The position numbers and the translations under genes were made by a program. 39,267 nucleotides of DNA from a virus (Duplodnaviria; Caudoviricetes), in IMG/VR virus record IMGVR_UViG_3300025396_000033, positions 1 through 39,267 of that record. One strand, 5' to 3'. Under the pieces are notes generated by a model that worked only from the letters and a program-made list of their open reading frames with translations, made no database searches and was not told the origin of the DNA. Each line of letters starts with the position of its first letter. Within the stretch, counting starts at the first letter, position 1. This document shows, piece after piece, positions 8,783 to 38,566 of the stretch.

Positions 8783-8867
8783 CTTTTTGGCATAAATAAA
8801 AATGAGGGTCACGATGCGTCAACATCTACCCTCTCTAATGCTAAAGTATTACATAAGGAGCACCAGC

Positions 8868-20437: not shown

Positions 20438-20866
20438 TTAACTAACTTCTGTACGCCCGTTGCCCAAGTCACGATTTATGATTGTACGCATATCAGTCAT
20501 ATCTCTGTTTTCAGGATCAGCTTGAACTTGAGCATAAAGTTCTAATGCAACATTGCGACAAACATCATTGAACCAACGATCCACGATATCCTGATCGGTG
20601 TCTTCCTTCTTTTTCATGTACCCTGCTTTTACAAGTTGAGTAATGAAGATACTGTTCCAATCTAATTCAAAAGAACCTGAATGAACATTAGTAGGATCAA
20701 TATCAAAACTTAGAATACTGACATAAGGTTCACCGGCTTCGGTTGCTATCTCTTTAGCACTTTTAACAGGTTGAACTTTCTTTTCTTTCTTTGCTTTAGG
20801 CGCAGGAGCCGGCTTAGGTGCGTCTTTTGTACCTAGTACATTTTTTATTTTATCAAATAATCCCAT
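20438..20866 (-). CDS. Conserved phage protein
   Basis: Start MGLFDKIK; GEPYV...G.FELDWN..F...L...GY...IVDRWF. Confidence 0.7.
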   Translation of the reverse strand: MGLFDKIKNVLGTKDAPKPAPAPKAKKEKKVQPVKSAKEIATEAGEPYVSILSFDIDPTNVHSGSFELDWNSIFITQLVKAGYMKKKEDTDQDIVDRWFNDVCRNVALELYAQVQADPENRDMTDMRTIINRDLGNGRTEVS

Positions 20867-21881
20867 CTTGTTTTGCTTTCTCATATAGTTTGTAGCTGGC
20901 TAGGTTCTTAGCCTTTGATTCGCACATGATATCAAATTTATCTAAGAATGTCAAAGCCCAATCGTTAACTGCATTGTTCCAGTAGTAATCACTGTGAGCA
21001 CGTAGTTTTTGTTTATTGTAACCTTCAGTTAGTAATTGTGCATGATTGGGTGCAACAGTTGCATCATGTCCAACTAATACGTCCTCACGACTAACAGAAT
21101 AGTGCAATGTTGGGCGAACACCTCGCCATGAATCTTGCACACGCTTAACATCATCACTAGTAACACTAATGTATTCACCCTCACGAATCCAATTGTGATG
21201 AATGTCCAATACAACAGGAACCAAGTCAGACAATGATAAACAGTCAGACAAACCATGTGTGTATTCTTCGTTCTCTAGTGTTAAGCCGTTACGTGCCTCA
21301 GGGCTAAGACGCTGGTATACATCCCTAATGCCTTGCGGACCACGGCGTCCTGAGATATGTACATTGATTTTAATATCTTGGAATGACTTTCCAAAACCCA
21401 TAAAGCGGGCCATGTCTGCATGATACTCAAACTCCTCAATAGATTTGTTTACAACTTCGTCACGATCACTTGCCAATACAACAAACTGATCGGGGTGAAA
21501 ACTAACACGAACATCATTAGCACGAGCAGTCTCACCTAATGGTGCAAACCATTTTGCTAGTAAGTCTTGTGTGTTTTGACTTTGCCAAAAGTCTTTGTAG
21601 TCATCATGTGTATAGAATGATAACATGTCGCTGGTTAGTCGCAACATGCGTAGTTCATTAGGAAGTGTTGCGACCTTCTTAATGAGATTGTGGGTATTGA
21701 CAATGTTTGTTTTTGCAACGTCAATAATCTTTTCCTCCACTACACTACGCTTGTTGCGATTTGCCCATGCCATAGTAGTGCCGCCGGTGTTAAGACCCTC
21801 AGCACTGGCGATTTCGCCTTTTTTATTAATCTCTGCCCATTTACAAGCAAAGCCGATACGTTTGATGGATTGATTAGTCAT
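20853..21881 (-). CDS. uvsE: UV-damage endonuclease UvsE/UVDE
   Basis: IGFAC, LRLTSD, RVSFHPDQF.VL.S, NVHISG, LENEE, LDIHH, HYS, AHSD, DIMCESKAK. Confidence 0.93.
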   Translation of the reverse strand: MTNQSIKRIGFACKWAEINKKGEIASAEGLNTGGTTMAWANRNKRSVVEEKIIDVAKTNIVNTHNLIKKVATLPNELRMLRLTSDMLSFYTHDDYKDFWQSQNTQDLLAKWFAPLGETARANDVRVSFHPDQFVVLASDRDEVVNKSIEEFEYHADMARFMGFGKSFQDIKINVHISGRRGPQGIRDVYQRLSPEARNGLTLENEEYTHGLSDCLSLSDLVPVVLDIHHNWIREGEYISVTSDDVKRVQDSWRGVRPTLHYSVSREDVLVGHDATVAPNHAQLLTEGYNKQKLRAHSDYYWNNAVNDWALTFLDKFDIMCESKAKNLASYKLYEKAKQDGII

Positions 21882-21887
21882 TGCAAT

Positions 21888-21916
21888 ATAGTAGCATATT
21901 TATGCTTTATTGTCAA
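21888..21916 (-). promoter_or_regulatory. sigma70 promoter, probably giving a leaderless uvsE mRNA
   Basis: TTGACA-17 nt-TACTAT, 6 nt before the ATG; the spacer also contains ATAAATA. Confidence 0.75.
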
Positions 21917-22736
21917 CCTTTAGCAAATCTTCCATTGTGTATAGTGATTTCATGTATGGGCTAACATCTTCTAGCACACTACTAGCAATATCTCCCGGTC
22001 TGCGAGGTCCATATTTAATATCAAAGTCTACATTATTGACTTTACAAAACAAATTGACAATCTCTCTAACCGTGTATCCTACACCGTGACCCAAACATTC
22101 TATGCTATTGCTTGGCTTTTCAATTGCAGTCTTCAACGCTTCACATATTTCCATGACATGGACGTAATCTCTTACGCATGTACCATCACCATGAATCGTG
22201 TCATAGTCATTACCGTAGATGGTAAACTCACCCTTTTCAGTAGCCTTCATTAGGTTATAGAACAATCCATCGGGATTGGTTGGTTGATATCCTTCACTAC
22301 CTATTACGTTATAAAATCTAAAACTAGTGTAGGGTATTTCTTTTTTGGTACAGTATTCACGCACAACATCTTCTGCTGCCTTCTTGCTTGTACCATATGC
22401 ACTTTCACATTTTTCAGCAGCACCTGTACTAGCAAGTATAAAACTCTTGTACTTGATATTCTTCAATATATTCAGTGTGCCAATCAAATTTGTTTGGTAA
22501 TAACTTTCAGGATTTGATTCGCTCTCTCCTACATTGACAAGTGCAGCCAAATGTATAACTGCATCATACTCAAATCTACTACCATACAATGAACGAATGT
22601 CTTGTGCATAATGCAAGTTTACATTACGCTGTGGTTGGTTGATATCAAGACCATGAATGTCATAATCTGTTTCTAACAACTTTGTTAAGTGGCTCCCAAT
22701 ATAGCCACTGTTGCCTGTGATTAATATTTTTTTCAT
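21900..22736 (-). CDS. NAD-dependent sugar epimerase/dehydratase (GalE-like)
   Basis: GNSGYIG, HLAA, YGTSK, RFYNV, DGTCVRDYVHV, RRPGD. Confidence 0.9.
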   Translation of the reverse strand: MKKILITGNSGYIGSHLTKLLETDYDIHGLDINQPQRNVNLHYAQDIRSLYGSRFEYDAVIHLAALVNVGESESNPESYYQTNLIGTLNILKNIKYKSFILASTGAAEKCESAYGTSKKAAEDVVREYCTKKEIPYTSFRFYNVIGSEGYQPTNPDGLFYNLMKATEKGEFTIYGNDYDTIHGDGTCVRDYVHVMEICEALKTAIEKPSNSIECLGHGVGYTVREIVNLFCKVNNVDFDIKYGPRRPGDIASSVLEDVSPYMKSLYTMEDLLKVDNKA

Positions 22737-24094
22737 TCAAAACTGAACAGATTTACACCTGCTACTTCCTCCGTTGGTTTGTATGTAGGATCTTTACTTA
22801 AGTATGTGTTGTTGTCGGTATACACAACATTACAAAATTTGTAACGGTTACTCAATACACTTTCGAAATCTTCTCTTGCCAAGTGGTCACGATCTAAGTC
22901 TTTGATGTAATCTTTGTAACATACGGTTTCATATGTATTTACCTTAGCTGCGTTATTATTGCTTCTTTTACCTACAAATTCGTCTAAGAACTTGATCCAA
23001 TCTTGTGCTACTGCTGTGTCTAACCACTGTACATACTTCAATGCACCTGTTTCATAGTGTTCTTGAGGAGTAATATTGTATTCTGATTTAATTGCAATAG
23101 CTACATTATTGATTGAAGTCTTAATGAAATACTTACCATCAAAATTGTCTGACCAGTCTTGTGTATTAAGTACGACACAAGGCATGTGACCTAGACATTC
23201 TAAGAATGCGAATGGATAGTTCTCACGTAGACTTGGCATAAAGAATACACTTGCACTTGTAATGAAGTCTACTTTCTCTTGTCCAGTAATGCCAGCTTTA
23301 ATTTCATAGTCAGTTATACCTGCTTCTTCAAATGCTTTTATAAACTTCTTTTCACCATTTGAGTTAGTCATAACTTTACAAGGAAGACCACACTCTTTCA
23401 TTACTTTAATGTATGCTTCTGGGTTCTTGCCTTCCTCCCAACGACCAATAAACAATACACCTTTACGTGCATTAAAACTAGGTTCAAGTAATCCTCTCTC
23501 GCTCATTGGCATAGGCAACAACTTACAATTTGTTGCACCGTACTTAGTCAGTTCATCAATATTCTTTTGACTCTGTGTACCAATGATGATATCACTAAAC
23601 TCCATGTGCTTGTTGTAGAAATTGTGATAGCTATCCAAGAATACATCACTACCTTGACTTTCACGGAAAATCATACTATGTAAATGTGTATAGAAAACGA
23701 CCGGGATATACTTGTTGACTGTCATAGCATATGCCGCAGTCATTGCTTCTTGTGTATTACACACAATCATGTCGTAGATGTTAGTCTCAAACGCTTTCAA
23801 TATGGCTTTACGAAAGTTGATAATCTTCTCAAAGTTGATTGTATCACTAAATGCAAATGTAGCAGTATGGTCACTATAACGTAATGCATCATTTGGATAT
23901 ACAATGTTTGCACCTGCATTTTTGATTACTTCATCAAATGTACCAGTAGGTTGTTTATCTAAAATAACATCTACTTTCCAACCAATACGACCGCACATTT
24001 CTGTAAAACTTTTACAGAAACTACCAATACCACCGTGAGGAATAAAGTGCTGGTCGCTGATTAAGAATGCAATTCTTTTACTGTACAACTTCAT
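22733..24094 (-). CDS. GT-B (GT4-like) glycosyltransferase
   Basis: GGIG, FIGRWEEGKNP, PSLRENYPFAFLE (EX7E). Confidence 0.85.
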   Translation of the reverse strand: MKLYSKRIAFLISDQHFIPHGGIGSFCKSFTEMCGRIGWKVDVILDKQPTGTFDEVIKNAGANIVYPNDALRYSDHTATFAFSDTINFEKIINFRKAILKAFETNIYDMIVCNTQEAMTAAYAMTVNKYIPVVFYTHLHSMIFRESQGSDVFLDSYHNFYNKHMEFSDIIIGTQSQKNIDELTKYGATNCKLLPMPMSERGLLEPSFNARKGVLFIGRWEEGKNPEAYIKVMKECGLPCKVMTNSNGEKKFIKAFEEAGITDYEIKAGITGQEKVDFITSASVFFMPSLRENYPFAFLECLGHMPCVVLNTQDWSDNFDGKYFIKTSINNVAIAIKSEYNITPQEHYETGALKYVQWLDTAVAQDWIKFLDEFVGKRSNNNAAKVNTYETVCYKDYIKDLDRDHLAREDFESVLSNRYKFCNVVYTDNNTYLSKDPTYKPTEEVAGVNLFSFE

Positions 24095-24314
24095 TGAACT
24101 TATCCTGAATAGACTTTATACATACTGCCTTTGTTGCATTAGCTAGGTCGTAGTCATAAGTAGTGCCACCAAAGGTCATTTTTGCTTCATTAACTGAATC
24201 TATGCATTCATTAACAACTAACTGAATCAAATCATCAAGGCGGTCATAGTAGACCCATTTGCCACTAGTGTCAGTCCCTACTTTGTTTACCAATTCTTTT
24301 GTTTTTTCTTTCAT
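24078..24314 (-). CDS. Small protein, distant HFGVE-family member
   Basis: MKEKTKEL...QLVVNECI...IQDKF mirrors the family architecture. Confidence 0.55.
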   Translation of the reverse strand: MKEKTKELVNKVGTDTSGKWVYYDRLDDLIQLVVNECIDSVNEAKMTFGGTTYDYDLANATKAVCIKSIQDKFNEVVQ

Positions 24315-24538
24315 ACTTTTTCTAACAGTCTCAGTTTAATAAATTCTTCTCTACAAATCCATTTGTAATCAGTAAAAAGTTGCCAATGATGTTTATTGTG
24401 TCCACGATAAGCGCCTTTTAACCATATCCATTTATCAGTCTCTAAACATTTATGTGGTAGAAAACAAAACTTGTATACCCAGTTGCGATTTATGCGTTCC
24501 CATTCAATTAGGGATATTCCCTGGTCGTACTCCATCAG
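24311..24538 (-). CDS. Hypothetical protein
   Basis: Coupled ORF (WVYKFCFLPHKC...WIWLK.AY); exact start uncertain. Confidence 0.55.
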   Translation of the reverse strand: MMEYDQGISLIEWERINRNWVYKFCFLPHKCLETDKWIWLKGAYRGHNKHHWQLFTDYKWICREEFIKLRLLEKV

Positions 24539-25377
24539 GTTCCCCATTCGTTTTTGAAGAGGGGCACTTGTAGTCTATCTGAGTAACGCCATCCTTTTCG
24601 CATTGCCATTTCTGCCACTGCTCTGTTGTTTAGAGCGTACACACTCTCAACCCCACCGCAAGGCATAAGATAAACAGGACCGGTAAAGCCACAGCTACGA
24701 TATTCATTTACAGCCCGTTCTGCTTCCTGTAAGTCTTCTTCTGATGCAACCACGAACTTAAGGTATACAAAGCCCACATTTTGGTATTGACGTATAACAT
24801 CAGGGCGTATTGCTTCATTCCAATCTTCTCCACTTATTGATAGTTTAGGACTTACGCTAAAGGTAAGTGCGTTCTTTTCACGATTTCGTTTCCAGTTTTG
24901 TAAAAACTCAACTAGATCACCGCTCAATTCTTGAGTACCATTTGTTTCAAATGTTAGTTCTTTAAGAGCAGCCATACGATAGTTGCTCAATAAATCAGGA
25001 TAGCTTTTTTGCCAACCTAATAACGGTTCACCGCCTGTGATAACCAAGTGCTCATCCATCCAACGCTTGTGAGGAAGTATATCCATAATGCTATCAACAA
25101 TACCACTTGACTCAATCACAGGACTAAGATCCTTAAAACGAGGGTCCCAACTAGCGTAACTATCGCATCCTGTGCTGACGAGAGGAAGTTCTTTGTATGA
25201 GTTATATTTTTCTGGTTGTACATTAAATCTCTCTACTGACAACTCACCTTTAGGCATTCCAAAGCCATCACACTTGAAGTTGCAACCAAATGTGCGTAAG
25301 AACACACTTGGTACACCCATGTAACGACCTTCACCTTGTATACTGTAAAACAGTTCTGATACTTTAATTTTGCTCAT
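24535..25377 (-). CDS. queE: 7-carboxy-7-deazaguanine synthase (radical SAM)
   Basis: [22 protein letters not shown]...GCDS, ITGGEPL, FETNGT, VSPKL, LKFVV; start MSKIKV at 25377 with GGAG RBS. Confidence 0.92.
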
Positions 25378-25555
25378 TTTTACTCCACAATTCAAGTGCT
25401 TTGGCAGGATAAATCTGAACAGAGCCTTTTTCTGTATCACTTTCAACTGCATAACCTTCTGGAGTTAACTCAGTTGAATATGTACCAACAACTGTTCCGT
25501 GCCACTGTGAACCTGAAACCTTTTTTACTAAATCACCTAATTTAAATTTGCTCAT
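25364..25555 (-). CDS. dfrB: Type II (R67/DfrB-family) dihydrofolate reductase homolog
   Basis: [52 protein letters not shown] matches the R67 core ([52 protein letters not shown], recalled), including catalytic VQIY. Confidence 0.88.
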
Positions 25556-26049
25556 GCGAATAAATCCTCATTCCATTCTCTGTGGCCTTCCCTAAAAGCC
25601 ATGTTACTTTGTGTTTCTCTAACTTCTACCCTATAGCACCAAAGTCGTTCTGCTTCTCCTGGACCCCACATGTCAGGAATGTAAACTCCATTGATATACT
25701 TATAAAGCATATTGCTAAGACCTTCACAACCTAGTTTGGATAGCACAACAATTTTTGCCATGTTTTTTTCTTGTAATAGTTTAAATGTTTCAAGTTCCGG
25801 GTCATCAGAACTGACCAGAAGGGTATGGTCGAACATATCCTCTAACAACTTCTTCAATTCTTTTAGTCCGCCATAGTCTGCGGCCCAATGGCGAACATCA
25901 AGGTCGTTGGTACCAAAGTAGAACTTCATACTGAAGCTGTAACCATGAATTAGATTGCAATGGCTGTCGGCTCGCCATTGACGATAAGCGCATGGAAATG
26001 CGTCATGGTACTCTTTAGTACTTGTATATTTGTATGTTATTGGTTGCAT
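25552..26049 (-). CDS. queD: 6-carboxy-5,6,7,8-tetrahydropterin synthase
   Basis: C.LIHGY zinc-binding motif, D.G.LK...FDH.LL, GCE, V.VRET. Confidence 0.9.
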
Positions 26050-26067
26050 TAATTTTCTCCTATGTTA

Positions 26068-26096
26068 ATTATAGCATAGGCGGCAGAATTTATCAA
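26068..26096 (-). promoter_or_regulatory. sigma70 promoter embedded in structured queD leader
   Basis: TTGATA-17 nt-TATAAT with extended TGn; overlaps inverted repeats (see findings). Confidence 0.6.
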
Positions 26097-26123
26097 GCGG
26101 GTTGACGCCCAAGACCGCTATCT

Positions 26124-26585
26124 TTATTTACCTTTTTGTGCTTCTGCGACCCTTTTTCTTAGTCCACTTGAACTGAATGAATGGTCACGACTATTGAACA
26201 CATGGTTGATACCTTTTTGAGCACCTTGAGCACGACCGGTAAAGTCTTGGCTTTGATACTCTACACCTAAGATACGAACATCAATAGGAAGAATCAATAT
26301 CAAGTCAATCAAATCTTGTTCCGTTTGGTAAACAACGATTTCATCAACATAACGGCATGCCGCCAATTGAATTTGTCTTTCCACCACTGATTGTACAGGT
26401 TTGTTTTTTGTATCTGGTCTATCAATTGTGGGGTCAGTCTGGAGCCCTGCAATAAGATAGTCGCAATGATTTTTAGCCTCAGATAGCATAGCAATATGCC
26501 CCGCATGAAGTAGGTCAAAAGTTGAGAAAGTAATTCCAATTATCTTTCCATCCTGTTTAAGTTTTTTAATTTTATTGAATATCAT
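26124..26585 (-). CDS. TagD-like (glycerol-3-phosphate) cytidylyltransferase
   Basis: FDLLHAGH (HxGH), L..GL.TD, ER...L.ACRYVDE, R.HSFSSS.LR. Confidence 0.88.
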   Translation of the reverse strand: MIFNKIKKLKQDGKIIGITFSTFDLLHAGHIAMLSEAKNHCDYLIAGLQTDPTIDRPDTKNKPVQSVVERQIQLAACRYVDEIVVYQTEQDLIDLILILPIDVRILGVEYQSQDFTGRAQGAQKGINHVFNSRDHSFSSSGLRKRVAEAQKGK

Positions 26586-26848
26586 ATTAACTCGCTAAGT
26601 TCTTCTACTAATGGTTCTGGTTCACCAAATTCACCAAAGCCCCATGTTAATTCGTACTCTTTACCTGCATGAAAATATGTTTCAGTAAAGGTTCGTTGAT
26701 TGTTGCTTGACTCAGCTGGCTCGACTAACGCAAGAAGTGTAAGCATGTGTTCACGCTCAATACCTTCTAATGTCCTACGCTTTTTCATGCCTATACTTTT
26801 AAGAAAGGCAAGTGCTTCTTCTTTTGAACTAAAAGGTGAACGATTCAT
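26582..26848 (-). CDS. Hypothetical protein
   Basis: Likely start MNRSPF, ATGA-coupled. Confidence 0.55.
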   Translation of the reverse strand: MNRSPFSSKEEALAFLKSIGMKKRRTLEGIEREHMLTLLALVEPAESSNNQRTFTETYFHAGKEYELTWGFGEFGEPEPLVEELSELI

Positions 26849-27081
26849 TCTTTTAATGTTCTCCACATTACTCTCTTTTCATTTTCAGTTAAGAATTCTT
26901 GTTCATCAGCAAATGTAGGACTTTCTTTAATGATACTATCAAGTAACCACTTGAGTTTGTACAAGTCTTGTTTAATCATCCATTGTGTGTAGCCATCATT
27001 GTAACGACTATTCAATTCTACACCGCTCATGTAGATTTGATGATGTACTGAATTATAATCCATTGGTTTACGATATCCCAT
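26845..27081 (-). CDS. Hypothetical protein
   Basis: Likely start MGYRKPMD; NDGYTQW.IKQDLY.LK. Confidence 0.6.
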   Translation of the reverse strand: MGYRKPMDYNSVHHQIYMSGVELNSRYNDGYTQWMIKQDLYKLKWLLDSIIKESPTFADEQEFLTENEKRVMWRTLKE

Positions 27082-27238
27082 TTTGTTTATCCAAACATGT
27101 GCAGTTTCTACCTTGATTACAGTCACCGTTACAATTGTTAGTTCGATGCCATGCATTAGTTAAGATAGCTGTTACAATACTGATGAATGGGTTAAGGAAA
27201 TAACCCAGTATCAATCCATAGATGAAGATTTCAACCAT
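27068..27238 (-). CDS. Small TM protein with Cys-rich tail (56 aa)
   Basis: Manual ORF MVEIFIYGLILGYFL...CNGDCNQGRNCTC. Confidence 0.55.
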   Translation of the reverse strand: MVEIFIYGLILGYFLNPFISIVTAILTNAWHRTNNCNGDCNQGRNCTCLDKQNGIS

Positions 27239-27435
27239 CACGCATGACCTTTGTAAATAAGTTGATTGACCATGTCAAGATCAAACTGCAAGTCTGCAAT
27301 GTGATCTTTTAATTTTTGATATTCTTCATTGTGTGGATCACTATTGCTAACAACAATACTCAAGTACATGTTGGCAGCAGCCTCATGTGCTTTGCGTAGT
27401 TCTTGTTCTAACAACAATCTTCTATCTTTTAACAT
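27238..27435 (-). CDS. Small coiled-coil protein
   Basis: Likely start MLKDRR immediately after the folE stop. Confidence 0.55.
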   Translation of the reverse strand: MLKDRRLLLEQELRKAHEAAANMYLSIVVSNSDPHNEEYQKLKDHIADLQFDLDMVNQLIYKGHA

Positions 27436-27436
27436 A

Positions 27437-28114
27437 TCATTTACCCTGACGAGCAATGCTTAAGAACTCTGCTCTGGCAGATGGATCAGTTTTAAAACCA
27501 CCACCTAGACGAACAGTAACAGTTGAACTACCAGTATCTTCTACCCCTCTTGCTGCAACACAGTAGTGTCGGGCGTCAATAAGAACCGCCACATCTTCGG
27601 TTTCAAGAATGTACTGAAGGCTGTGAAAGATTTGCTCAGTGAGCCTCTCTTGAATTTGTGGGCGCTTTGAGAAGTATTCAACGATTCTATTAATTTTTGA
27701 TAAGCCCAAGACTTTCTGTTTGGGCACGTAAGCAACAGTTGCAAGACCGTCGATAACGACAAAATGATGTTCGCAATTGCTTTGTACCGACACATTGCGC
27801 TCAACAACCATTTCGTTGTAATGCATCTTATTATCCACTGTGGTGCATTTTGGGAATGCTTCATAATCTAAACCCCACATCACCTCATTTACAAACATTT
27901 TGGCAACACGCTTAGGTGTTTCAATCAAGCTATCATCGGTTAAATCTAACCCTAGTGCTTGCATTATAGCAGTAAAATGAAGTTCGATCTTTTCAATCTT
28001 TTCTTTACGGTCAAGATTGTTTTGTATTGTAGGTGTTTCAACACCCATTTTGACTAAGTGCTCATGCACTTTAAGACCCAGTTCTGGATCGCATTTTGTT
28101 TTATTAAAACTCAT
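27437..28114 (-). CDS. folE: GTP cyclohydrolase I
   Basis: ETPKRVAKM, SNCEHH, LGLSKINRIV, RPQIQERLT, HYCV..RGV, RAEFL. Confidence 0.97.
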   Translation of the reverse strand: MSFNKTKCDPELGLKVHEHLVKMGVETPTIQNNLDRKEKIEKIELHFTAIMQALGLDLTDDSLIETPKRVAKMFVNEVMWGLDYEAFPKCTTVDNKMHYNEMVVERNVSVQSNCEHHFVVIDGLATVAYVPKQKVLGLSKINRIVEYFSKRPQIQERLTEQIFHSLQYILETEDVAVLIDARHYCVAARGVEDTGSSTVTVRLGGGFKTDPSARAEFLSIARQGK

Positions 28115-28149
28115 AGATAACCCTCCGTTGTGATGGTTTTATTTTGACG

Positions 28150-28181
28150 TTGTGCAACCTTTGTGTTGCACAAGTATTTAT
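28150..28181 (-). promoter_or_regulatory. T4-late-like promoter (ATAAATA) followed by a 9-bp hairpin
   Basis: ATAAATAC then TTGTGCAAC-6 nt-GTTGCACAA, upstream of folE. Confidence 0.55.
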
Positions 28182-28186
28182 CACAA

Positions 28187-28384
28187 TTACTTAGCTGCTG
28201 CTTTTTCTGCGGCACGTGCATTTTTAGTTTCAGTGATTTCGTTACGGCGTGCCTTAACTGCTTTAGCCAATTCACCTAATGCTTTACGAGCACGAGTACC
28301 TGCTGCATTGTTACCTTTTTCAAATTTTTCACTTTCAGCCAAGTATGCTTCCAAGTGTGTGTTAATATCATTGTGTGCGCTCAT
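28187..28384 (-). CDS. Histone H1-like (Hc1-type) nucleoid protein
   Basis: EKFEKGNNAAGTRARKAL.EL.K..K..R.EI; Ala/Lys-rich; AAGGAG RBS. Confidence 0.75.
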   Translation of the reverse strand: MSAHNDINTHLEAYLAESEKFEKGNNAAGTRARKALGELAKAVKARRNEITETKNARAAEKAAAK

Positions 28385-28396
28385 AGTATTCTCCTT

Positions 28397-28843
28397 TTAA
28401 TTTGCGTCTTTTGGATCAGGTTCACCGCTGAACTCTTCACCTGTATCTTCATTTGTAAGAACTAGTGGACCAGTGAACATATATTCAGTGTCATCAAGTG
28501 ACCAACCTAATTCTTCTACACCTTCAAAATAGTTTTCTTCCCATGCTTCGTCAAATTCTTCCAAGTCTTCATCAGTACAATTGCGACCTTTTTCAGAATC
28601 TGCCCAGCAACCATCAATCATGTCTTCCATTTCCCACGATTCATTGGCAATGTCTACCCAACCAAGTTCATACCCGCCTTCGTTTTTCAACTCTTCGGGT
28701 GTGAGTGGGATCGTATCTGATTCAATGTAAAAAGTGGCCCAACGATAACCTTCTTCACGAATGATTTGTTTATCATCTTTGTACCAATATTGTGTTTCAA
28801 TTGCAGACTTTTTATATTTAGGTGATAGTTTCCAAGTAGCCAT
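28397..28843 (-). CDS. Acidic hypothetical protein
   Basis: 148 aa D/E/W-rich ORF. Confidence 0.65.
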   Translation of the reverse strand: MATWKLSPKYKKSAIETQYWYKDDKQIIREEGYRWATFYIESDTIPLTPEELKNEGGYELGWVDIANESWEMEDMIDGCWADSEKGRNCTDEDLEEFDEAWEENYFEGVEELGWSLDDTEYMFTGPLVLTNEDTGEEFSGEPDPKDAN

Positions 28844-28844
28844 T

Positions 28845-30032
28845 TTAGTATTTGCTTTCTTTAGTGTGTTTACGATAGTCAGTGCTCATACGTAGCATTG
28901 TATCACCCTTGCCCTCAAGAATGTCAACGATACGGTCAATCGTACCGTCATTGTAGTCACTGATTTTACCCATTAACTCGCTTGATTTTTCAAGTAACTT
29001 TTCAAGTTTGTCAAGCGCATCTTCAATAGACCAAGGAATATACAAGCGAGTATTATCATTGCTAAAAGTTTCTGGGAAACTACGATAAGCAGGATAAAGC
29101 ACATTACAGCCCAGAGCATCTGCCTCCGAGACAGTATTACTGACCCAATCTTGTAATGCACAGTTAAATACCACGCGGCTATCATTAACAATGTTATAGT
29201 AATCATTCTTGTCTAAGTCCTCATAGATACTCAACATACCAATAGCATGAAGTCGTTTAGTACGATCCATATAGCTATCATTATTGCTTTTGAGTTTTGC
29301 ACCACTACAGATACAGAATTCTACACTTGATCCTGGATGGCGATTATACCATGCTTCAATGATATCCATATAGAAGTCTGGTTGCTTTTCTTGATCCCAT
29401 CTTGCACTAAACACAACACGATGTTTGCGGTCACTGAATGGCTTGATTGAATCAACACGACTCTGTACTTCACTCTTACCGAATGCTAGTCCACTGATAT
29501 TGTAGATTGGGGCTTCCCAACCTGCAATCTTCATGTGCATGACCATTTCTTCATTAGTTGCGAGGATTCCACCTTCACTTTGGCGGACAGCTTCACATAC
29601 CATCTGTTCGTAGGATGCCATAAACTTTGACATGCCCCAGACATGGACAAAGTCATCAGGATCAATTGACTGCGCCAAGCATCGTACAAAAATCTTTGGA
29701 CGATGTGACTGAGGAACTTGATTAAGAATGTAAGGCAAACTCTCAAAGCCCGGTTGAAACATATCTTCAAAGTAGATAACATCATCACTGGTAACTTCTC
29801 CTGCCTTCATCATCTTAACTAAGTTCATCAATTGACTCATGCCAAAGTATGAACGACCATGTGCATCAAGTACTTGCCCGGTAACAATTGCTTGATCGTT
29901 ACTTAGTGTTTCACCACTTACAATTTGATAGTTGATACCACGTTTCTCAAAGACTCGTGTATTCCACTCAGTCAATTGAAGGGTATATCTTGCTTTATAG
30001 GGTTCAAGACCCATGTAGAATAATTTACGCAT
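28845..30032 (-). CDS. GT-B glycosyltransferase-like protein, possibly DNA-modifying
   Basis: FSARWDQEKQP, QDWVSNTVSEA (DX7E), YP..RSFPE; start MRKLFY is TAATG-coupled. Confidence 0.8.
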   Translation of the reverse strand: MRKLFYMGLEPYKARYTLQLTEWNTRVFEKRGINYQIVSGETLSNDQAIVTGQVLDAHGRSYFGMSQLMNLVKMMKAGEVTSDDVIYFEDMFQPGFESLPYILNQVPQSHRPKIFVRCLAQSIDPDDFVHVWGMSKFMASYEQMVCEAVRQSEGGILATNEEMVMHMKIAGWEAPIYNISGLAFGKSEVQSRVDSIKPFSDRKHRVVFSARWDQEKQPDFYMDIIEAWYNRHPGSSVEFCICSGAKLKSNNDSYMDRTKRLHAIGMLSIYEDLDKNDYYNIVNDSRVVFNCALQDWVSNTVSEADALGCNVLYPAYRSFPETFSNDNTRLYIPWSIEDALDKLEKLLEKSSELMGKISDYNDGTIDRIVDILEGKGDTMLRMSTDYRKHTKESKY

Positions 30033-30238
30033 TATCGGATGATGATATCTGCCCAACCATCTTTTGGTTGTTTACCTGCTAACTGTTTTGTATGTTGACG
30101 ATAGACAAATGATCGCATATCATACAATGTTGCTTCATCAAACTTAAACCCATAGTCTACACAAAATTCTTTGTAGGCTTCTAAGTCTTCAAAGATTTGA
30201 CGGACGCGGTGATTAGGTTGAATGTGTGGTTTTGCCAT
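30032..30238 (-). CDS. Conserved small phage protein
   Basis: IFEDLE.Y..FC..YG..FDE..LY; AGGA RBS. Confidence 0.65.
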   Translation of the reverse strand: MAKPHIQPNHRVRQIFEDLEAYKEFCVDYGFKFDEATLYDMRSFVYRQHTKQLAGKQPKDGWADIIIR

Positions 30239-30250
30239 TTTGTTTTCCTA

Positions 30251-30706
30251 TTAAATTTTTAGGTTGTTGTAAGGTTGAGTTGTGTTGTAATGTATCGTAG
30301 CACCATTCTCATTGTCTTCTGAAACAGTGATAGTGATATTACGATCTGGATATCGAGTTGCAATAACCTCATAAAGGTCATCACTAATCATTTCACAACT
30401 TTTGTAATCCAATGCAAGGATGCCTTGAGAATATTGATTCTCTAACCATCGTTTGAATTGAATAAACTCAATATCACGGTCGTTGTGAAATACTTCAATC
30501 GTCACTTCAAAGTGAAAGATGTGACGATGTGGAGTTGCTAAAAAGCTAACGTCATACTCATCACCTGTTGCCAAGTTAGGGTCTGTCGCTGCTGCTGGGT
30601 ATTTGTGAATACCCTCTTTTTGAAATCTTACAAAAATTGTACGAATGGCTTTGTCTTTGATACGTGTACGTTGTTCAAAAAGTGCCTGTTGTCTTTGTTC
30701 TTCCAT
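30251..30706 (-). CDS. dpdL: QueD-paralog T-fold protein, DpdL-like (candidate CDG decarboxylase)
   Basis: LATPHRHIF fits the LxxxHRHxF signature I recall for DpdL; also DRDIEF, SCEM, VSEDNENG. Confidence 0.7.
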   Translation of the reverse strand: MEEQRQQALFEQRTRIKDKAIRTIFVRFQKEGIHKYPAAATDPNLATGDEYDVSFLATPHRHIFHFEVTIEVFHNDRDIEFIQFKRWLENQYSQGILALDYKSCEMISDDLYEVIATRYPDRNITITVSEDNENGATIHYNTTQPYNNLKI

Positions 30707-30709
30707 GAT

Positions 30710-32194
30710 TTACTCAAACTTAAAAAATTCGTTAAACTTTGTTCTAGCGTTAATTGCTTTCTTACCGCTGAACCCCTGACTACCACTAGACATTTGTGTC
30801 CATAATTGACTGTGTGCATCAATGATATCCATACTATCTTTGCGGGTCTTTTGAGCAAACACTTCATTAACAACTTCACGGAATGTTTTACCAGTATCAC
30901 GTTCGTGAATCATTGCAGGTGTAATACCTTGCTCGTATCTACGATTCGCTTCTTGTACAGCATAGATATGTTGATAAACATTATGACTTTGAATCAGTGT
31001 ATAACTCAATGTATCCCAACTAGTTTTAGTTTCTTTACCATGAGCACCGATGAAACCCTGCCCTCTGTAACAAATATCTTTCATAAGTAGTATATCAGTT
31101 ACAGGACTGTCTGTAAACATAGTATGGATACCGTCAGCAATACAAGCATCACTATACTTACGCATATCACCTGCGTATGTAGGTGTGATACCATAATGCT
31201 TGCCTTCTGCTGTTTTAGTCATACTATATGCCCACTTTTTATTATTTTCAATTGTGTTATTAAAGTATGCCAAACCCTTAGCAGCACTAAAGAATGGGCT
31301 TGCACAGTCAAAAGTAATTTGCAAGTTTGGATTGTGATTTGCACGTATTGCTTTTTGGATATCAGTAAACAACACAGCATACTCTAAGATAGATACACCC
31401 AAACAATGAATCAAATCATGTTTGCCTGGTTTTAGTAATCCATCATAGATAATGTCAACCATTCTACGTAGTGTCAAATGAATGTCAATTTTGTTTTGAC
31501 CACCAAATGCCCAACCATTAAAGTGATTGTCTGGATAGATATTTGGATCACAATACTTCTTCATTTCATTATACCACTCATCACTTTCAGTATGATTAGT
31601 ACCTTGAAGAACGTTTAAGAACTTGCAACTACCATTACGATTCTTAATAAAATATTCGTTGTTAATATGTGTAGCGTCAATGGCATCCTGAATGTTAGTA
31701 ATGCCATGAACCTTATGCATTTCTTGATTCAAGAAACTTTGTGATGGGATATCTAAACACATACCATAATCCATATATGTGTCCATCCAGTTCAATACAG
31801 CTTTACGCTTAATCATTGCTTTAGGATCGTTGGGGTCTTTCCAATCAGCAGGCCATTGGCCTTTAAGAATTTGAAAACCACCACTATCACCTAACATGAA
31901 TGTACCTTCTTCACGCTTGCGAATGATACTTTCATTTGGATTATCTTTTGTAGTGTCTAAGTCAGCATGACCTGCACTATACAAACCCCACTTATAAGTG
32001 TATAAGCCTTCTTTGCTGTTTAAGAAGTTTAGTTTTTCTACATCGCCGTTGAAACTTGCAGGGATGCGTTCTTTGGGAAAGTAATCTTCTCCCTCTCGTT
32101 GCTTACCCAAGCCAGCGATATAGAAACTGCTGACTGCGGGTAAGAACAATGCCCATTCTGGGTTATGTTGACTTGATAAATTTACTTGTTCCAT
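30710..32194 (-). CDS. dpdA: TGT-fold base-exchange enzyme (DpdA-like DNA 7-deazaguanine transglycosylase)
   Basis: TGT motifs in order: DSGGFQ, CLDIP, VLQG, WAFGG, HCLG, TFDCASP; lacks the CxCxxC zinc site of tRNA TGT. Confidence 0.8.
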   Translation of the reverse strand: MEQVNLSSQHNPEWALFLPAVSSFYIAGLGKQREGEDYFPKERIPASFNGDVEKLNFLNSKEGLYTYKWGLYSAGHADLDTTKDNPNESIIRKREEGTFMLGDSGGFQILKGQWPADWKDPNDPKAMIKRKAVLNWMDTYMDYGMCLDIPSQSFLNQEMHKVHGITNIQDAIDATHINNEYFIKNRNGSCKFLNVLQGTNHTESDEWYNEMKKYCDPNIYPDNHFNGWAFGGQNKIDIHLTLRRMVDIIYDGLLKPGKHDLIHCLGVSILEYAVLFTDIQKAIRANHNPNLQITFDCASPFFSAAKGLAYFNNTIENNKKWAYSMTKTAEGKHYGITPTYAGDMRKYSDACIADGIHTMFTDSPVTDILLMKDICYRGQGFIGAHGKETKTSWDTLSYTLIQSHNVYQHIYAVQEANRRYEQGITPAMIHERDTGKTFREVVNEVFAQKTRKDSMDIIDAHSQLWTQMSSGSQGFSGKKAINARTKFNEFFKFE

Positions 32195-33393: not shown

Positions 33394-36111
33394 TTACCCG
33401 AACGTAAAGAAGTTGTCAAAGGTTGATTTAGTGTTTGAGTTTTCACGGATCTTCCAATCCAACACACCTAAAAGGTTATCAATCTTTTCATCAACTAATG
33501 TCTTTTCCATTTCTTCGTCATCAAATGGTAACTCAATGAACCATTGCGGTAATCGTAGTTCGTCCGTTGGGTAAGCAACACTATTCATATTCAATGCATT
33601 TGGTTTGAGTTTACATACAACAATCTTCATACCATCTACAATTTTCATTGAGTAGTTGTCGTTATAAAGATTTCGTAAATAGTTATAGTTAATCGCAGCC
33701 ATAGCATGACCAACACCACATTTACCTGTCTTCTCCCAGTTTTGTGTATGCTTAGTCAAATTATTAACTGACTTAGGTGAACCTTTTGTCCAAGGCTTTT
33801 GTTCACTCAACCAACGCTTGAATTCTTTTACGGTTTCGATAACTTCATCTCGTGTTTTACCTTGCTGTATGACCATTTGCAATACGTTCATCAAGAACTC
33901 TTGCACATACTTAGGAGTATCCGCACGTTTCAAGTCAAGACCCATAGCTTTGATATCGCCTAACTTACCATTACTATCTTTACGTTTACCCTCTTTATCA
34001 AAGATGTTGATGGCATAACGTTTTTTAGTAATGAAGATACTGCGATCACCAATTAATTCACGACCAGCTTTAATGATTGCACCATTCTTACGAGGAGCGT
34101 GAAACGCTTTCTCCATGAATGCTGGGAAACTCTCGTTTGCTTCATCAGCAATACTGTCGTATAAGCCAATACAAACATCTTTGTCCCATGACAACTCACC
34201 TGCTTCAACTTGTGCTTTAAGTGCAGGCCACGCCGAGAAATAACAACTATCAGTATCGCCATAAACAATAGAACGACCTTCGTGTGTATATTCACCTTCA
34301 ATACTTTGATTGATTTGGCTCATCATGTGGCGAACAATTTGACGACCACTTAGTGTAACACTTTGACCAATACGTTTGTCATAGAAACGACAATGTTCAT
34401 TCAACAATGCACCATAAGCACTGTTTAACAAAATCTTACGAACTAATTGACGCTTATCATAATAAGCATGTAGTTCTTTATCTCCTGCTGCATCTGCTTC
34501 TTTAGCCTGTTTCTGTGTTGCTTTACGTTCAGTATACCAACGACTTAGTAATCCTGGAACGACACCTTCTTTTTCATAAGTATAGATTGTACCGTTTGCT
34601 GATATCATCCAAGGCTTATGACTGTCAAAGACTAGTTTCCATATCTCGGCTGCACTCATTTCAATACTACGACCATCTTCATAGTCTAGCCATAACATAG
34701 TGCCACGTTCTTGGTTCATAATTGCTGTGTACTCTAGTGCACCAAACAAGTTTTCCCACAAGATAGCACCTTTAACATCTTCATCACCTTCTTTGAAGAA
34801 TTTCTTCTCACGTGCTAATTTAGCACCTTTATCCTTCATGTATTGGTCTGTTAATGTTTGTCTGACTTGAGCAACAATGGTTTCACCTGCCATGTTGAGC
34901 GCCCGAATAACGGATGGATATAGCGAGTTGATGTCAACTGCTCCGACCCAGTCATGCATTCCCTTTTGGGGAGTAGCAACATAGGCACCTGCTGCTTGCT
35001 GTTGTTCTTCATCATTTTCATTCTTCCTTTTCTTATCTGGTACAACTAACCCACGACTGTGAGCCTCGTTCATAACTGCCATTTCAATCATAGCAACTGA
35101 ACCCATAACTGTTGGCATAAGAACTGTGTTCTCATGTGCCAATGCGTTAGCAAGTTCTAAGAACTTTGTTTTGTTATGAATCTTAACCAACAACATAGTA
35201 TCTTGACGGTTATACTCTAAGAACTTTTCCCAGTCCTTGTTGTACAATTGGTCTAGAGTACCTTCATATTGTGTTTTGTTTTCACCGACTTCCATTTCAC
35301 CAATGGCGTCTAGTTTATAACTGTGTCGTGATTCATAGTTATACTTTTTGTACAATTGTAAATAGTCAAGGTGAATACGACCAACCAAATCGTAAGTCAT
35401 TTCTTTCTTACCAAATCGTTCATATTCTCTTGGCTTTGGAAGCTGACCCAATAGACAGAATTTTCTAGTGTCATCCTTACTCATTACTCGTGTTACACGA
35501 TTAACCATGTAGGGTATGTCATAGCCTTCACTGTTCCAACCAGTCACAACATCAGCATCTTCTATCAATTGGAAGAAAACATCAAACATTTCCTTTTCAT
35601 TTTTGAAAAGTAATGTGTTATCAAACTTACTTACAATTTCTTGTGCTGTTTCTTCACTCATGTGCTTAGGTGGAATACACAATGTTACCAATGTGTCTTG
35701 CCAATCTAAGTATAGACTGATTGCTGTTACTGGATTGAATGGGTCACTTGTTGGACTGAACCCTTTAACGGGGTCAAAGTCAACTTCAATGTCAAAGAAA
35801 CAAGTGTGTAGTTTAGGTGGTTCAACACCTAAATAGTTTTCTGATAAGCAACGGAATATAACGTTAACATCACTCTCATACAATGTTTTGTTAGAGTGGA
35901 TACGCTTTTCCTTTTCAAATTCTTGTCTCTTGCGAGTACTGAATCTTGATACAGGAGTACCGTAAATACTTCGTTGTTTGCCTTTAGGGTCGTCATAGTA
36001 AAGCACATAATTTGCTGGAAACTCGTTATATACTCTTTTACCCTCAGGTGATCTTTCTACTACATAGATACGGTCTTCATCACGGGAATGAATAGCATCA
36101 ATGTATGACAT
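33394..36111 (-). CDS. Family B DNA polymerase (gp43-like)
   Basis: ExoI DIE, ExoII N...YD, ExoIII YNRQD, motif A DINSLYPS, motif B KILLNSAYG, motif C YGDTDS, KKRYA; no intein evident. Confidence 0.97.
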   Translation of the reverse strand: MSYIDAIHSRDEDRIYVVERSPEGKRVYNEFPANYVLYYDDPKGKQRSIYGTPVSRFSTRKRQEFEKEKRIHSNKTLYESDVNVIFRCLSENYLGVEPPKLHTCFFDIEVDFDPVKGFSPTSDPFNPVTAISLYLDWQDTLVTLCIPPKHMSEETAQEIVSKFDNTLLFKNEKEMFDVFFQLIEDADVVTGWNSEGYDIPYMVNRVTRVMSKDDTRKFCLLGQLPKPREYERFGKKEMTYDLVGRIHLDYLQLYKKYNYESRHSYKLDAIGEMEVGENKTQYEGTLDQLYNKDWEKFLEYNRQDTMLLVKIHNKTKFLELANALAHENTVLMPTVMGSVAMIEMAVMNEAHSRGLVVPDKKRKNENDEEQQQAAGAYVATPQKGMHDWVGAVDINSLYPSVIRALNMAGETIVAQVRQTLTDQYMKDKGAKLAREKKFFKEGDEDVKGAILWENLFGALEYTAIMNQERGTMLWLDYEDGRSIEMSAAEIWKLVFDSHKPWMISANGTIYTYEKEGVVPGLLSRWYTERKATQKQAKEADAAGDKELHAYYDKRQLVRKILLNSAYGALLNEHCRFYDKRIGQSVTLSGRQIVRHMMSQINQSIEGEYTHEGRSIVYGDTDSCYFSAWPALKAQVEAGELSWDKDVCIGLYDSIADEANESFPAFMEKAFHAPRKNGAIIKAGRELIGDRSIFITKKRYAINIFDKEGKRKDSNGKLGDIKAMGLDLKRADTPKYVQEFLMNVLQMVIQQGKTRDEVIETVKEFKRWLSEQKPWTKGSPKSVNNLTKHTQNWEKTGKCGVGHAMAAINYNYLRNLYNDNYSMKIVDGMKIVVCKLKPNALNMNSVAYPTDELRLPQWFIELPFDDEEMEKTLVDEKIDNLLGVLDWKIRENSNTKSTFDNFFTFG

Positions 36112-36439: not shown

Positions 36440-36844
36440 TTACCCTTTGTAGCCTTTAGGTAAGATGTGTTTAGATTGTCCTGAACGGTTCCATGACTGC
36501 CACATTCTTTCACCTTGGTCGGTTTGCATATCACTAGGAATAATGTCGTTGCCCAACATCTTGGCATACGCATACATGTTAGTTGCAATATTCTGACCTT
36601 GATAGTTTTTATTTACCCAGGTGTTTTGACTAATCAACGCTTTGTCATGTGGTTCTTCTGCAAGTTCGGCTTCAGCAACTACTTTTTTACCATCGTATAC
36701 AGTGATGATAAGTTGGTTACCCCAACCAGTATTGTTTTCTGTTGTAGCAACATATCTAAGCCCATGTATCTCTAATTCATGTTTGAAGTTAGAATGATAG
36801 ATATCTGGGTTTACTGTTTCGTTTATAAATTCACTTGCTCTCAT
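36440..36844 (-). CDS. GNAT-fold protein with MRASEF N-terminus (putative head-internal protein)
   Basis: V..NYQGQNIAT.MY (motif A-like), SD.QT.QG.RMW. Confidence 0.6.
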   Translation of the reverse strand: MRASEFINETVNPDIYHSNFKHELEIHGLRYVATTENNTGWGNQLIITVYDGKKVVAEAELAEEPHDKALISQNTWVNKNYQGQNIATNMYAYAKMLGNDIIPSDMQTDQGERMWQSWNRSGQSKHILPKGYKG

Positions 36845-37377: not shown

Positions 37378-37931
37378 TTTGATTTTGGCTTTTGATGATG
37401 CTTCTTCATGTTGATAGCAATTGCAGCCTGTTGTGCTAGATTGGCAGCTTCTTCAACACTTTCATTTGGTACACAGTTGTTTACTTTCATACCTGGATGT
37501 GTTGGGCTATTTTTCATTCCTTCTTTGTGCTTACCTGGCCAGCATTTTTCAGCATTGCGTTGTGCTTGTGTGCGTTTCTTTTCAGAGATAAACTGTGTAG
37601 CACTTTCTAGCATTTGTTGCATTTCTTCAACACTCTCACAATGCCATCTACGCAAACTCTTATTGATATTGCTGTTTGGATCATGTGCAGTTTTAGCACC
37701 AGTGCGATGTTTCTTCATACCCTTCATACGAGCACAGAAACTGGCACGGCGTTTAGCGGCTTTACTACCTTTTTTCAATTTGCTTGGTTTTGTAGTTACA
37801 GCAGTTTGAATATGACTACCTGGGTGTTCTCTACGGTAAACACTCACGCTTTTCTTACTCATGCCACCAACACGTTTGTGATTGTGTTTGCTCCAATTTT
37901 CACCTTCTGTGATAACTTCTTGTATTTTCAT
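37374..37931 (-). CDS. Basic modular putative virion protein
   Basis: MKIQEVITE; RRASFCARM.G...SLRRWHC module; CWPG...VNNCVP module; E-rich linkers. Confidence 0.65.
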   Translation of the reverse strand: MKIQEVITEGENWSKHNHKRVGGMSKKSVSVYRREHPGSHIQTAVTTKPSKLKKGSKAAKRRASFCARMKGMKKHRTGAKTAHDPNSNINKSLRRWHCESVEEMQQMLESATQFISEKKRTQAQRNAEKCWPGKHKEGMKNSPTHPGMKVNNCVPNESVEEAANLAQQAAIAINMKKHHQKPKSK

Positions 37932-38566
37932 AATATCCTCAAATAGTCTTTAAAATTTTGATGACGGGCTTGTAAGCCAAGTAATGCCGGGTTAATTGCT
38001 TTGGTAACGCTAGTTGTGTCACCAAAGTTTTGAACGTTTGGCTTAACACGAGTCTTCCAATACCATAATGCAATTTTTGCAGCAACATCTGGCTTTGCTG
38101 CTAGTTCAGGGTGATTGACTAAATCAACACCAATCGCTTCACCTGCCATACGATAGTTGTCACGACCAGTTAACTGAACATAACCTCTACCATGATAACG
38201 TTCACCATCACCTGGCTTGTTGTTACCTAACATTCTTGCTGTTTTAGGAGCATAACGTATATCATATTTATGAGCAAAATAATCTTTGAACTTTGGCTTC
38301 TCAGACATTTTACTAAAGTCCCATGATTCATGTTTCATCTGACCCAAGAACTGAGCAAGTTCACTACCCTTTAATCCATTATGTCTTGCTACTTTTTGTA
38401 ACACAAGTTCATTGTCAGTGTTAGGGCTTAATACATTGTATTCTTCTGGTTGAGGCTTATACTGCATAGCATTAGCACCGGTAGCTGCCATCATACCGGT
38501 AGCGGCAGCACCTTTCATAAAGTTTCTACGACTCATACTCTCAACTAAGAATTCAATTGCTCTCAC
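37928..38566 (-). CDS. GH19 chitinase/lysozyme-like peptidoglycan hydrolase with twin-arginine motif
   Basis: AQFLGQ..HES, LGN...GDG.RY.GRGYVQLTGR.NY, P.L, T..IN; SRRNFMK followed by Ala-rich helix and ANA. Confidence 0.88.
   Translation of the reverse strand: MRAIEFLVESMSRRNFMKGAAATGMMAATGANAMQYKPQPEEYNVLSPNTDNELVLQKVARHNGLKGSELAQFLGQMKHESWDFSKMSEKPKFKDYFAHKYDIRYAPKTARMLGNNKPGDGERYHGRGYVQLTGRDNYRMAGEAIGVDLVNHPELAAKPDVAAKIALWYWKTRVKPNVQNFGDTTSVTKAINPALLGLQARHQNFKDYLRIL

Follow-up and report, generated by a model that had tools for sequence, protein, structure and literature searches.

A QueC-less deazaguanine gene block in a jumbo phage contig

The window analyzed here is the whole of a 39,267-nt contig (IMG/VR record IMGVR_UViG_3300025396_000033), which CheckV rated as about 11% complete for a jumbo phage genome; complete relatives of this phage span 352 to 525 kb. 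This study concerns a gene block in that window which combines a 7-deazaguanine DNA modification pathway with two glycosyltransferases of the GT-B fold, designated GT1 and GT2, and in particular the relationship of GT1 to the DNA transglycosylase DpdA and its partner DpdL. A preliminary description, made from the sequence without database searches, had placed ten named genes in one co-oriented block, and profile matches, identity to PA5oct proteins, and predicted folds confirmed all ten on the minus strand in those positions (Table 1). Read along the minus strand, the order is polB, a clamp-like gene, dpdA, dpdL, GT1, folE, a nucleotidyltransferase gene, queD, dfrB, queE, GT2, an epimerase gene, and uvdE. 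The intergenic gaps within the block range from -22 to 81 nt, and nine additional small open reading frames (ORFs) are interleaved.

The same description had called the block an island. Since GC content is flat across the window and the order polB-clamp-dpdA-dpdL-GT1-folE-(nucleotidyltransferase)-queD-queE-(GT2-epimerase) is shared within the clade, it is instead a conserved region of this phage clade. Co-orientation carries little meaning, as almost every gene of the contig lies on the minus strand. Both dpdA and queE were seen in 65 of 158 close IMG/VR loci, and all 65 also carried dpdL and GT1, along with folE (60 loci), queD (60), the nucleotidyltransferase (51), the epimerase (50), and GT2 (46); about half of the 158 loci had been picked by GT1 itself, some contigs were repeated, and locus ends lowered the counts.

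The gene set folE, queD, queE, dpdL, and a dpdA is complete in the window. This set, without QueC, has already been published (Cui 2023, PMC10516641). The DpdL motif as defined there, LxxxHRHxF, is present as L56-x3-H60-R-H62-x-F64 and is common to the DpdL of phage phiST. Sequence searches against Pfam, PHROG, NCBIfam, PADLOC, and PDB gave no name to either DpdA or DpdL; PHROG 17812 matches DpdL and carries no function. The annotated counterparts are from phage PA5oct, in which QCG76197.1 is listed as DpdA3 and QCG76199.1 as DpdL (Data S1 of PMC10516641).

The profile of the window DpdA aligned with DpdA2-type proteins (ACP17, BUDD, and kin) at an hhalign probability of 92.5%, versus 37.6% for short DpdA3, and a phmmer comparison with phiST DpdA3 gave no match. 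Its direct match to bacterial tRNA-guanine transglycosylase (TGT) was weak (E = 9e-4), with the QG, HxLG, and FDC motifs aligned, and the two were bridged through DpdA2-type profiles at about 92% each way. DSGG, D148, and D296 are invariant, and the nearest named clusters in the ESM Atlas are TGT/DpdA. No Pfam TGT, PDB, or PADLOC match to the window DpdA was found, so that its predicted kinship to TGT draws on motif alignment and profile bridging, without a direct family match.

Because the contig and the window are the same incomplete piece, absence of QueC was judged from relatives. None of four complete IMG/VR relatives matched QueC. Among 26 records there were five weak partial matches, one of them above cut-off only by summing, and the BUDD match is its NAD synthase; among the ORFs of 332 loci, QueC was found in Xanthomonas phage PhiXhv-12 only. 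The proposal of a QueC-less, DpdL-type deazaguanine pathway is supported.

GT1 accompanies long DpdA in one of two classes of DpdL system

The neighborhood comparison that had been suggested for the GT-B gene at 28845 was carried out, and GT1 was found to co-occur with dpdA and dpdL across unrelated phages. Eighty IMG/VR phage loci, related rather than independent, were selected for their DpdL motif, with ranking against phiST. GT1 was present in 52 and a short phiST-type DpdA3 in 26; two had neither, and none had both. In the reverse direction, dpdL was present in all 22 loci that three distant GT1 seeds had retrieved (16 of 16 once six seed-identical copies were removed).

The same division was seen in cultured phages. 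Eight of 14 cultured DpdL phage records (BUCT-ZZ01, ACP17, BUDD, X1, BCSR5, PA5oct, Paride, and Phosso) carry GT1 near dpdL, and the DpdA of these phages is long (416 to 540 aa), being encoded elsewhere in the genome in Phosso. The other six (phiST, MA9V-3, D479, Ahp1, RHph_I1_18, and Bakedbeans) lack GT1 there, and three genome-wide GT1 queries matched none of them. All six have a short DpdA3 of 259 to 326 aa (422 aa with a fused domain in RHph_I1_18), whose neighbors are mostly nucleotide-kinase or dUTPase/MazG-like. A dCTP-deaminase/dUTPase-like family was present in 28 of the 32 short-type loci but in no GT1 locus. GT1 was found with three different DpdA types, and GT1 loci contain genes for sugar tailoring, namely, epimerase, UDP-sugar dehydrogenase, DegT aminotransferase, and PIG-L deacetylase.

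Full replacement by 2'-deoxy-7-deazaguanosine (dDG) was measured in phiST, and dDG was measured in phiST-type phages only, as far as the available text goes (Cui 2023, PMC10516641). As none of the 80 loci has GT1 together with a short DpdA3, we infer that the phiST result describes the short class, in which synthesis of dDG may take place at the level of the nucleotide, and does not settle the base of the GT1 class.

Short DpdA3 proteins (about 260 to 300 aa) travel with nucleotide kinases and with dUTPase/dCTP-deaminase- or MazG-like genes, as in phiST (L005:20601-22763), L168, L170, L171, and the short-type loci among L253 to L332. Such neighbors suggest that the base is exchanged at the nucleotide level, counter to the published postreplicative view, and such exchange would explain the 100% replacement in phiST. 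A hidden glycosyltransferase between phiST dpdA3 and dpdL was considered and rejected, the gene there encoding a kinase-like P-loop protein. In many GT1 loci, a family of about 170 aa with no assigned function lies just upstream of dpdL (for example, L293:669-1202; 79 of 332 loci, including ACP17 gp122), and it has no Pfam or PADLOC match. It was discarded as a missing partner because the window lacks it and no other cultured locus was found to carry it. A third DpdA type occurs in smaller phage loci (L412 to L416 and L273:10287-11657) with the order folE-dpdL-radical SAM-GT1-DpdA-like; the GT1 proteins of these loci gave the highest scores against proteins resembling the tRNA glycosyltransferase QTMAN.

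GT1 is a retaining-type GT-B enzyme with a QTMAN-related donor domain

The probable start codon of GT1, ATG 30032, gives a protein of 395 aa, in line with most of its closest relatives. Its AlphaFold2 (AF2) model is a two-domain GT-B structure with a predicted local distance difference test score (pLDDT) of 91.7. The top PDB matches in Foldseek were glycogen synthase, BshA, MshA, and PimA, all retaining enzymes, with template modeling (TM) scores of 0.60 to 0.65, and the best named match in BFVD was the ACP17 gene. Retaining GT-B enzymes of the GT4-like type are marked by a donor-binding Arg, a Lys, and an acid-x7-Glu motif, and GT1 conserves R211, K216, and D295-x7-E303 at the donor site. The GT1 family is large: among the 8,000 proteins that were scored, at least 7,966 passed an E value of 0.001. 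At 1e-30, 938 clusters at 50% identity passed, and the family is conserved in aquatic jumbo phages.

The GT1 profile was compared with 16 bacterial proteins bearing the QTMAN_N domain (PF12038) and with 30 ordinary GT4 enzymes. It scored 52 to 73 bits on 15 of the 16, the remaining one having been extracted in the wrong frame, versus at most 8.5 bits on the 30 GT4s. The whole of this signal was confined to the C-terminal donor domain (53 to 79 bits, with ordinary GT4s reaching no more than 9.6). For this reason, sequence comparison makes GT1 a sister group of QTMAN and not a member; full membership was rejected, since the acceptor domain had no match. QTMAN transfers alpha-mannose from GDP-mannose onto a hydroxyl of the 7-deazaguanine queuosine in tRNA (10.64898/2026.06.28.735034).

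GT1 in bacterial islands and in phage PhiXhv-12

A scan of GTDB with GT1 returned 25 loci, 22 of them with a long DpdA. Fifteen look like bacterial islands in Alphaproteobacteria, and GT1 lies beside a long DpdA in all 15. Five annotated islands sit among integrases or resolvases, some with defense-type genes. Across the 14 corresponding genomes, whose completeness is not stated, DpdL was found in eight, QueC in three, and neither in four. The transporter family YhhQ/Vut_1 was matched next to GT1 weakly and below cut-off in two islands and strongly in a phage cluster.

In the islands L347 (10001-15477), L355, and L342, GT1, a long DpdA, an uncharacterized 585-aa protein, and GT2 have integrases and ABC-3C or STAND genes as neighbors. 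PADLOC gave no match in these three, which possibly represent a new restriction-modification-like system. PhiXhv-12 has Gat-QueC, a PIG-L deacetylase, a GT1 homolog, and an oxidoreductase in a row (L173:5735-9821), making this cultured phage a candidate for an archaeosine-type base that bears an amino sugar; a weakly DpdA2-like gene lies elsewhere in its genome.

GT2, the epimerase, and other neighbors

The AF2 model of GT2 (pLDDT, 88) has a GT-B fold by Foldseek, with R218, K223, and E291-x7-E299 at the donor site, the latter motif being invariant. By profile it is not QTMAN-like. That both glycosyltransferases belong to the pathway had been proposed, and for GT2 this stood in part. GT2 is 42% identical to a BUCT-ZZ01 gene lying between folE and dpdA, where it flanks dpdA, abuts GT1 in two IMG/VR loci (L426 and L427), and is present in four of the 15 bacterial islands (L347, L349, L354, and L355). 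It occurs in only one of the 52 distant GT1 loci, and in both BUDD and X1 it lies far from the dpd genes; homologs are present in 21 Erwinia phage records, the Erwinia jumbo phages having no DpdL match.

The proposed dedicated kit for sugar or polyol transfer was not borne out. The epimerase was found in 15 of the 52 distant GT1 loci, versus none of 26 short-DpdA3 loci, and the nucleotidyltransferase in six of 52 and two of 26, respectively. The latter had been described as a TagD-like cytidylyltransferase. It scored better against RfaE domain II (heptose-1-phosphate adenylyltransferase; E = 9e-22) than against glycerol-3-phosphate cytidylyltransferase (E = 2e-15), both below cut-off, and reached 56.9 bits against the TagD model TIGR01518, whose cut-off is 165.4; CDP-polyol chemistry was rejected on these grounds. 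A second copy of this gene lies between dpdL and GT1 in many clade members (L009, L014, L017, L019, and others). The DfrB assignment was upheld at the level of the Pfam domain and fell short of the NCBIfam cut-off. This gene is a sporadic passenger found in 17 of 332 loci; in these 17 related phage loci it is 87 to 100% conserved, and it is possibly an environmental relative of trimethoprim resistance genes. Neither the nucleotidyltransferase nor DfrB is probably needed for the modification.

Outside the block, the window contains a lone plus-strand gene resembling homing endonucleases (8802-9551), two minus-strand GNAT-like acetyltransferases (13704-14273 and 36440-36844) for which a Mom-like role is putative at most, and a minus-strand GH19 endolysin with a twin-arginine translocation-like signal (37928-38566). 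The 525-kb relative, record G001, holds two differing copies of the cassette (L020 and L034) and may be a chimeric assembly.

Table 1. Genes of the modification block and its flanks
Feature	Position in window	Strand	Evidence and remarks
polB	33394-36111		Upstream of dpdA, with the clamp-like gene between
Long DpdA, predicted DNA-guanine transglycosylase, 494 aa	30710-32194	-	35% identity to PA5oct QCG76197.1
DpdL, proposed 7-carboxy-7-deazaguanine (CDG) decarboxylase, 151 aa	30251-30706	-	59% identity to PA5oct DpdL QCG76199.1
GT1, retaining-type GT-B	28845-30032	-	Donor domain akin to that of QTMAN enzymes; core partner to long DpdA
Histone H1-like Hc1 protein	28187-28384	-	PF07432 above cut-off; inside block, adjoins folE
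FolE, GTP cyclohydrolase I	27437-28114	-	PF01227, E = 2e-60; NF006824 above cut-off (Pfam and NCBIfam cut-offs passed)
HIGH-family nucleotidyltransferase (RfaE-domain-II/TagD-like)	26124-26585	-	Passes PF01467; accessory
QueD, 6-carboxytetrahydropterin (CPH4) synthase	25552-26049	-	Passes PF01242; PHROG 2389
DfrB/R67-like protein	25364-25555	-	PF06442, E = 7e-22; NF000331, 88.2 of 137 bits, below cut-off
QueE, CDG synthase	24535-25452 (probable start, 25377)	-	PHROG 2076, E = 7e-51; NCBIfam QueE models below cut-off
GT2, second GT-B, GT4-like	22733-24094	-	Extended by about 70 aa at the C terminus; optional partner
GalE-like nucleoside diphosphate (NDP)-sugar epimerase	21900-22736	-	Passes PF01370; TIGR01179 best but below cut-off; candidate accessory for donor tuning
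UvdE, UV damage endonuclease	20853-21881	-	18 nt past epimerase; conserved clade neighbor

A possible GT1-dependent sugar on a DNA purine

GT1 keeps its place in unrelated phages and in bacteria, and the DNA of the phage studied here therefore likely carries a sugar-bearing purine. We put the probability that a GT1-dependent sugar stands on a 7-deazaguanine base of the phage DNA at roughly 60%. In the proposed pathway, FolE, QueD, and QueE, whose genes are present and whose chemistry is established for these families, would convert GTP to CDG, and DpdL would decarboxylate CDG to 7-deazaguanine (DG), as proposed by Cui 2023. The long DpdA would insert the base after replication, as shown for DpdA2, in place of part of the guanines and probably at selected sites. 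GT1 would then transfer a sugar from an NDP-sugar to the inserted base with retention. A first guess at the donor is GDP-mannose, and the chance that the epimerase sets the donor is about even; addition of a second sugar by GT2 is conceivable but doubtful. The sugar cap is predicted to serve as armor against host nucleases. The weakest link is the acceptor. Position 7 is favored, as a C-glycoside that would be formed together with DpdL decarboxylation or on the CDG carboxyl; the acceptor atom is uncertain, because DG has no hydroxyl.

DpdL activity as a CDG decarboxylase is itself a proposal that, in the available text, has never been reconstituted: dpdA plus dpdL of phiST or ACP17 yielded no dDG in Escherichia coli, and the authors noted that other enzymes may be needed (PMC10516641). 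The ACP17 test did not include the glycosyltransferase gene (gp124) that lies between dpdA and dpdL in that phage, and GT1 may explain the failed reconstitution. PA5oct DNA is resistant to five restriction enzymes, the pattern having been interpreted as modified G in GA/GG, and the liquid chromatography-mass spectrometry reported in the available part of the same source is for other phages (PMC12191111).

Several points weigh against a sugar on the inserted base. The lack of a hydroxyl on DG is one, and we know of little precedent for a retaining GT-B that makes a C-glycoside. The N-terminal (acceptor) domain of GT1 scored at most 1.1 bits against QTMAN (hhalign, 0.1%), and the window contains no match to PF12038. 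In a quick tree, the branch uniting GT1 with QTMAN-like proteins had 92% support in the Shimodaira-Hasegawa-like approximate likelihood ratio test (SH-aLRT), below the tool's mark of 95, and the comparison with QTMAN covered only bacterial QTMAN-like proteins, of predicted function. The T4 DNA glucosyltransferases were not among the best 50 Foldseek matches listed for GT1. The Fisher P value of 5e-19 for the split between GT1 and short DpdA3 overstates independence because the loci are related; the split is a pattern across lineages, not 80 independent events. The literature searched holds no base measurement for any GT1-bearing phage. Finally, six of the 14 bacterial GT1 genomes lack DpdL, four of these lacking QueC as well, and in PhiXhv-12, which has no DpdL, a divergent GT1 stands next to Gat-QueC. 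The acceptor is therefore not DG everywhere, and GT1 tracks deazaguanine insertion more broadly than it tracks DpdL, which supports the link to the pathway while leaving the acceptor atom uncertain.

GT1 might act within the pathway and yet leave no sugar on DNA, by glycosylating either the free base or some pterin-like intermediate for storage, channeling, or shielding from host TGT, the DNA carrying plain dDG or its 7-carboxy counterpart (dCDG). Such a role would account for the co-occurrence without an unusual DNA acceptor. The models of GT1 and GT2 do fold like small-molecule GT4 enzymes (BshA, MshA, and SenB), a tetrahydrobiopterin glucosyltransferase is among the GT2 Foldseek matches, and the DpdL motif is identical to that of dDG-making phiST. 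We nevertheless regard it as unlikely, since the short-DpdA3 class makes dDG without GT1 and since the variety of sugar-tailoring genes is easier to reconcile with a sugar that is displayed and diversifies than with a disposable one. Lower still stands the idea that the acceptor is the 7-substituent of host-derived or salvaged preQ0, preQ1, G+, or queuine, with DpdL in a side role. The queuosine acceptor of QTMAN, the YhhQ/Vut_1 transporter genes in some GT1 loci, and the PhiXhv-12 arrangement with Gat-QueC all fit such a glycosylated preQ/Q-type base, but phage GT1 is nearly always found with DpdL and without QueC, and a phage reliant on salvage would not need its own folE, queD, and queE.

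Equally improbable for the locus as a whole is that the glycosyltransferases, epimerase, and nucleotidyltransferase are a separate kit directed at sugars on the host surface, at virion proteins, or at another base and have only the replication region in common with the deazaguanine genes. Clusters of glycosyltransferase and NDP-sugar genes in jumbo phages are thought, in the sources available, to alter cell surfaces. For GT2 and the RfaE-like nucleotidyltransferase a separate role is plausible, given that BUDD and X1 carry GT2 far from their dpd genes and that homologs of GT2 occur in Erwinia jumbo phages without a DpdL match. GT1, on the other hand, adjoins dpdA and dpdL in unrelated lineages of phages and in bacterial islands, with a gene order that varies, and is excluded from the short-DpdA3 class. 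Action on 5-hydroxymethylcytosine or 5-hydroxymethyluracil was also judged unlikely: the complete relatives encode one ordinary ThyA and gave no Tet/JBP match in a search run without a positive control, so no hydroxymethyl-pyrimidine acceptor is evident.

A more specific version of the GT1-dependent sugar on DNA is speculative and probably not right in all its parts. DpdL and GT1 would jointly place a sugar on C7 of 7-deazaguanine in DNA, giving a C-glycosylated purine that GT2 extends to a disaccharide. GT1 would mark out a second, large class of DpdL systems, present in phages and in bacterial defense islands, with the sugar varying with the neighboring tailoring genes, and the short-DpdA3 class would replace G wholesale at the nucleotide level. 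To our knowledge, the glycosylated DNA bases described so far are pyrimidines. A sugar on a purine analog would add a chemical class to phage DNA armor. Cultured GT1 carriers include PA5oct, Paride, ACP17, BUDD, BUCT-ZZ01, and Phosso. As the preliminary description had supposed, no characterized example emerged: the literature searched, with subscription papers and preprint supplements outside it, contained no glycosylated deazaguanine in DNA in the parts available (including PMC6884629, PMC7824862, PMC13282480, PMC6892783, and 10.1101/2025.10.29.685425).

Comparison with known systems

The dDG system of phiST has the same four biosynthetic genes (FolE, QueD, QueE, and DpdL), no QueC, and the same DpdL motif as the window. 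It differs in its DpdA3, which has 259 aa rather than 494 and adjoins kinase-like and MazG genes, and in lacking GT1; in the available part of the Cui 2023 supplement (PMC10516641), "glycosyl" occurs once, within a chemical synthesis. The DpdA2 systems of Vibrio phages VH7D and nt-1 share the long TGT-like transglycosylase, and VH7D DpdA2 is reported to insert CDG weakly. VH7D and nt-1 themselves encode QueC and make preQ0, preQ1, or G+ derivatives, and three GT1 queries matched neither.

The T4 alpha- and beta-glucosyltransferases and the TET-linked phage DNA glycosyltransferases resemble GT1 in their GT-B fold and in the predicted placement of postreplicative sugar armor on a modified base. 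They act on hydroxymethyl-pyrimidines, whereas the top fold matches listed for GT1 are other GT4/GT5 enzymes. QTMAN/GTDC1, which combines PF12038 with a GT-B C-terminal domain, is likewise a retaining GT-B with a related donor-binding domain, and its known acceptor is a 7-deazaguanine within nucleic acid. It differs in the acceptor domain, for which GT1 has no match, and in its target, which for GT1 is predicted to be DNA; GT1 phages cannot make the cyclopentenediol of queuosine. GT1 links phage DNA chemistry to the QTMAN family of tRNA enzymes.

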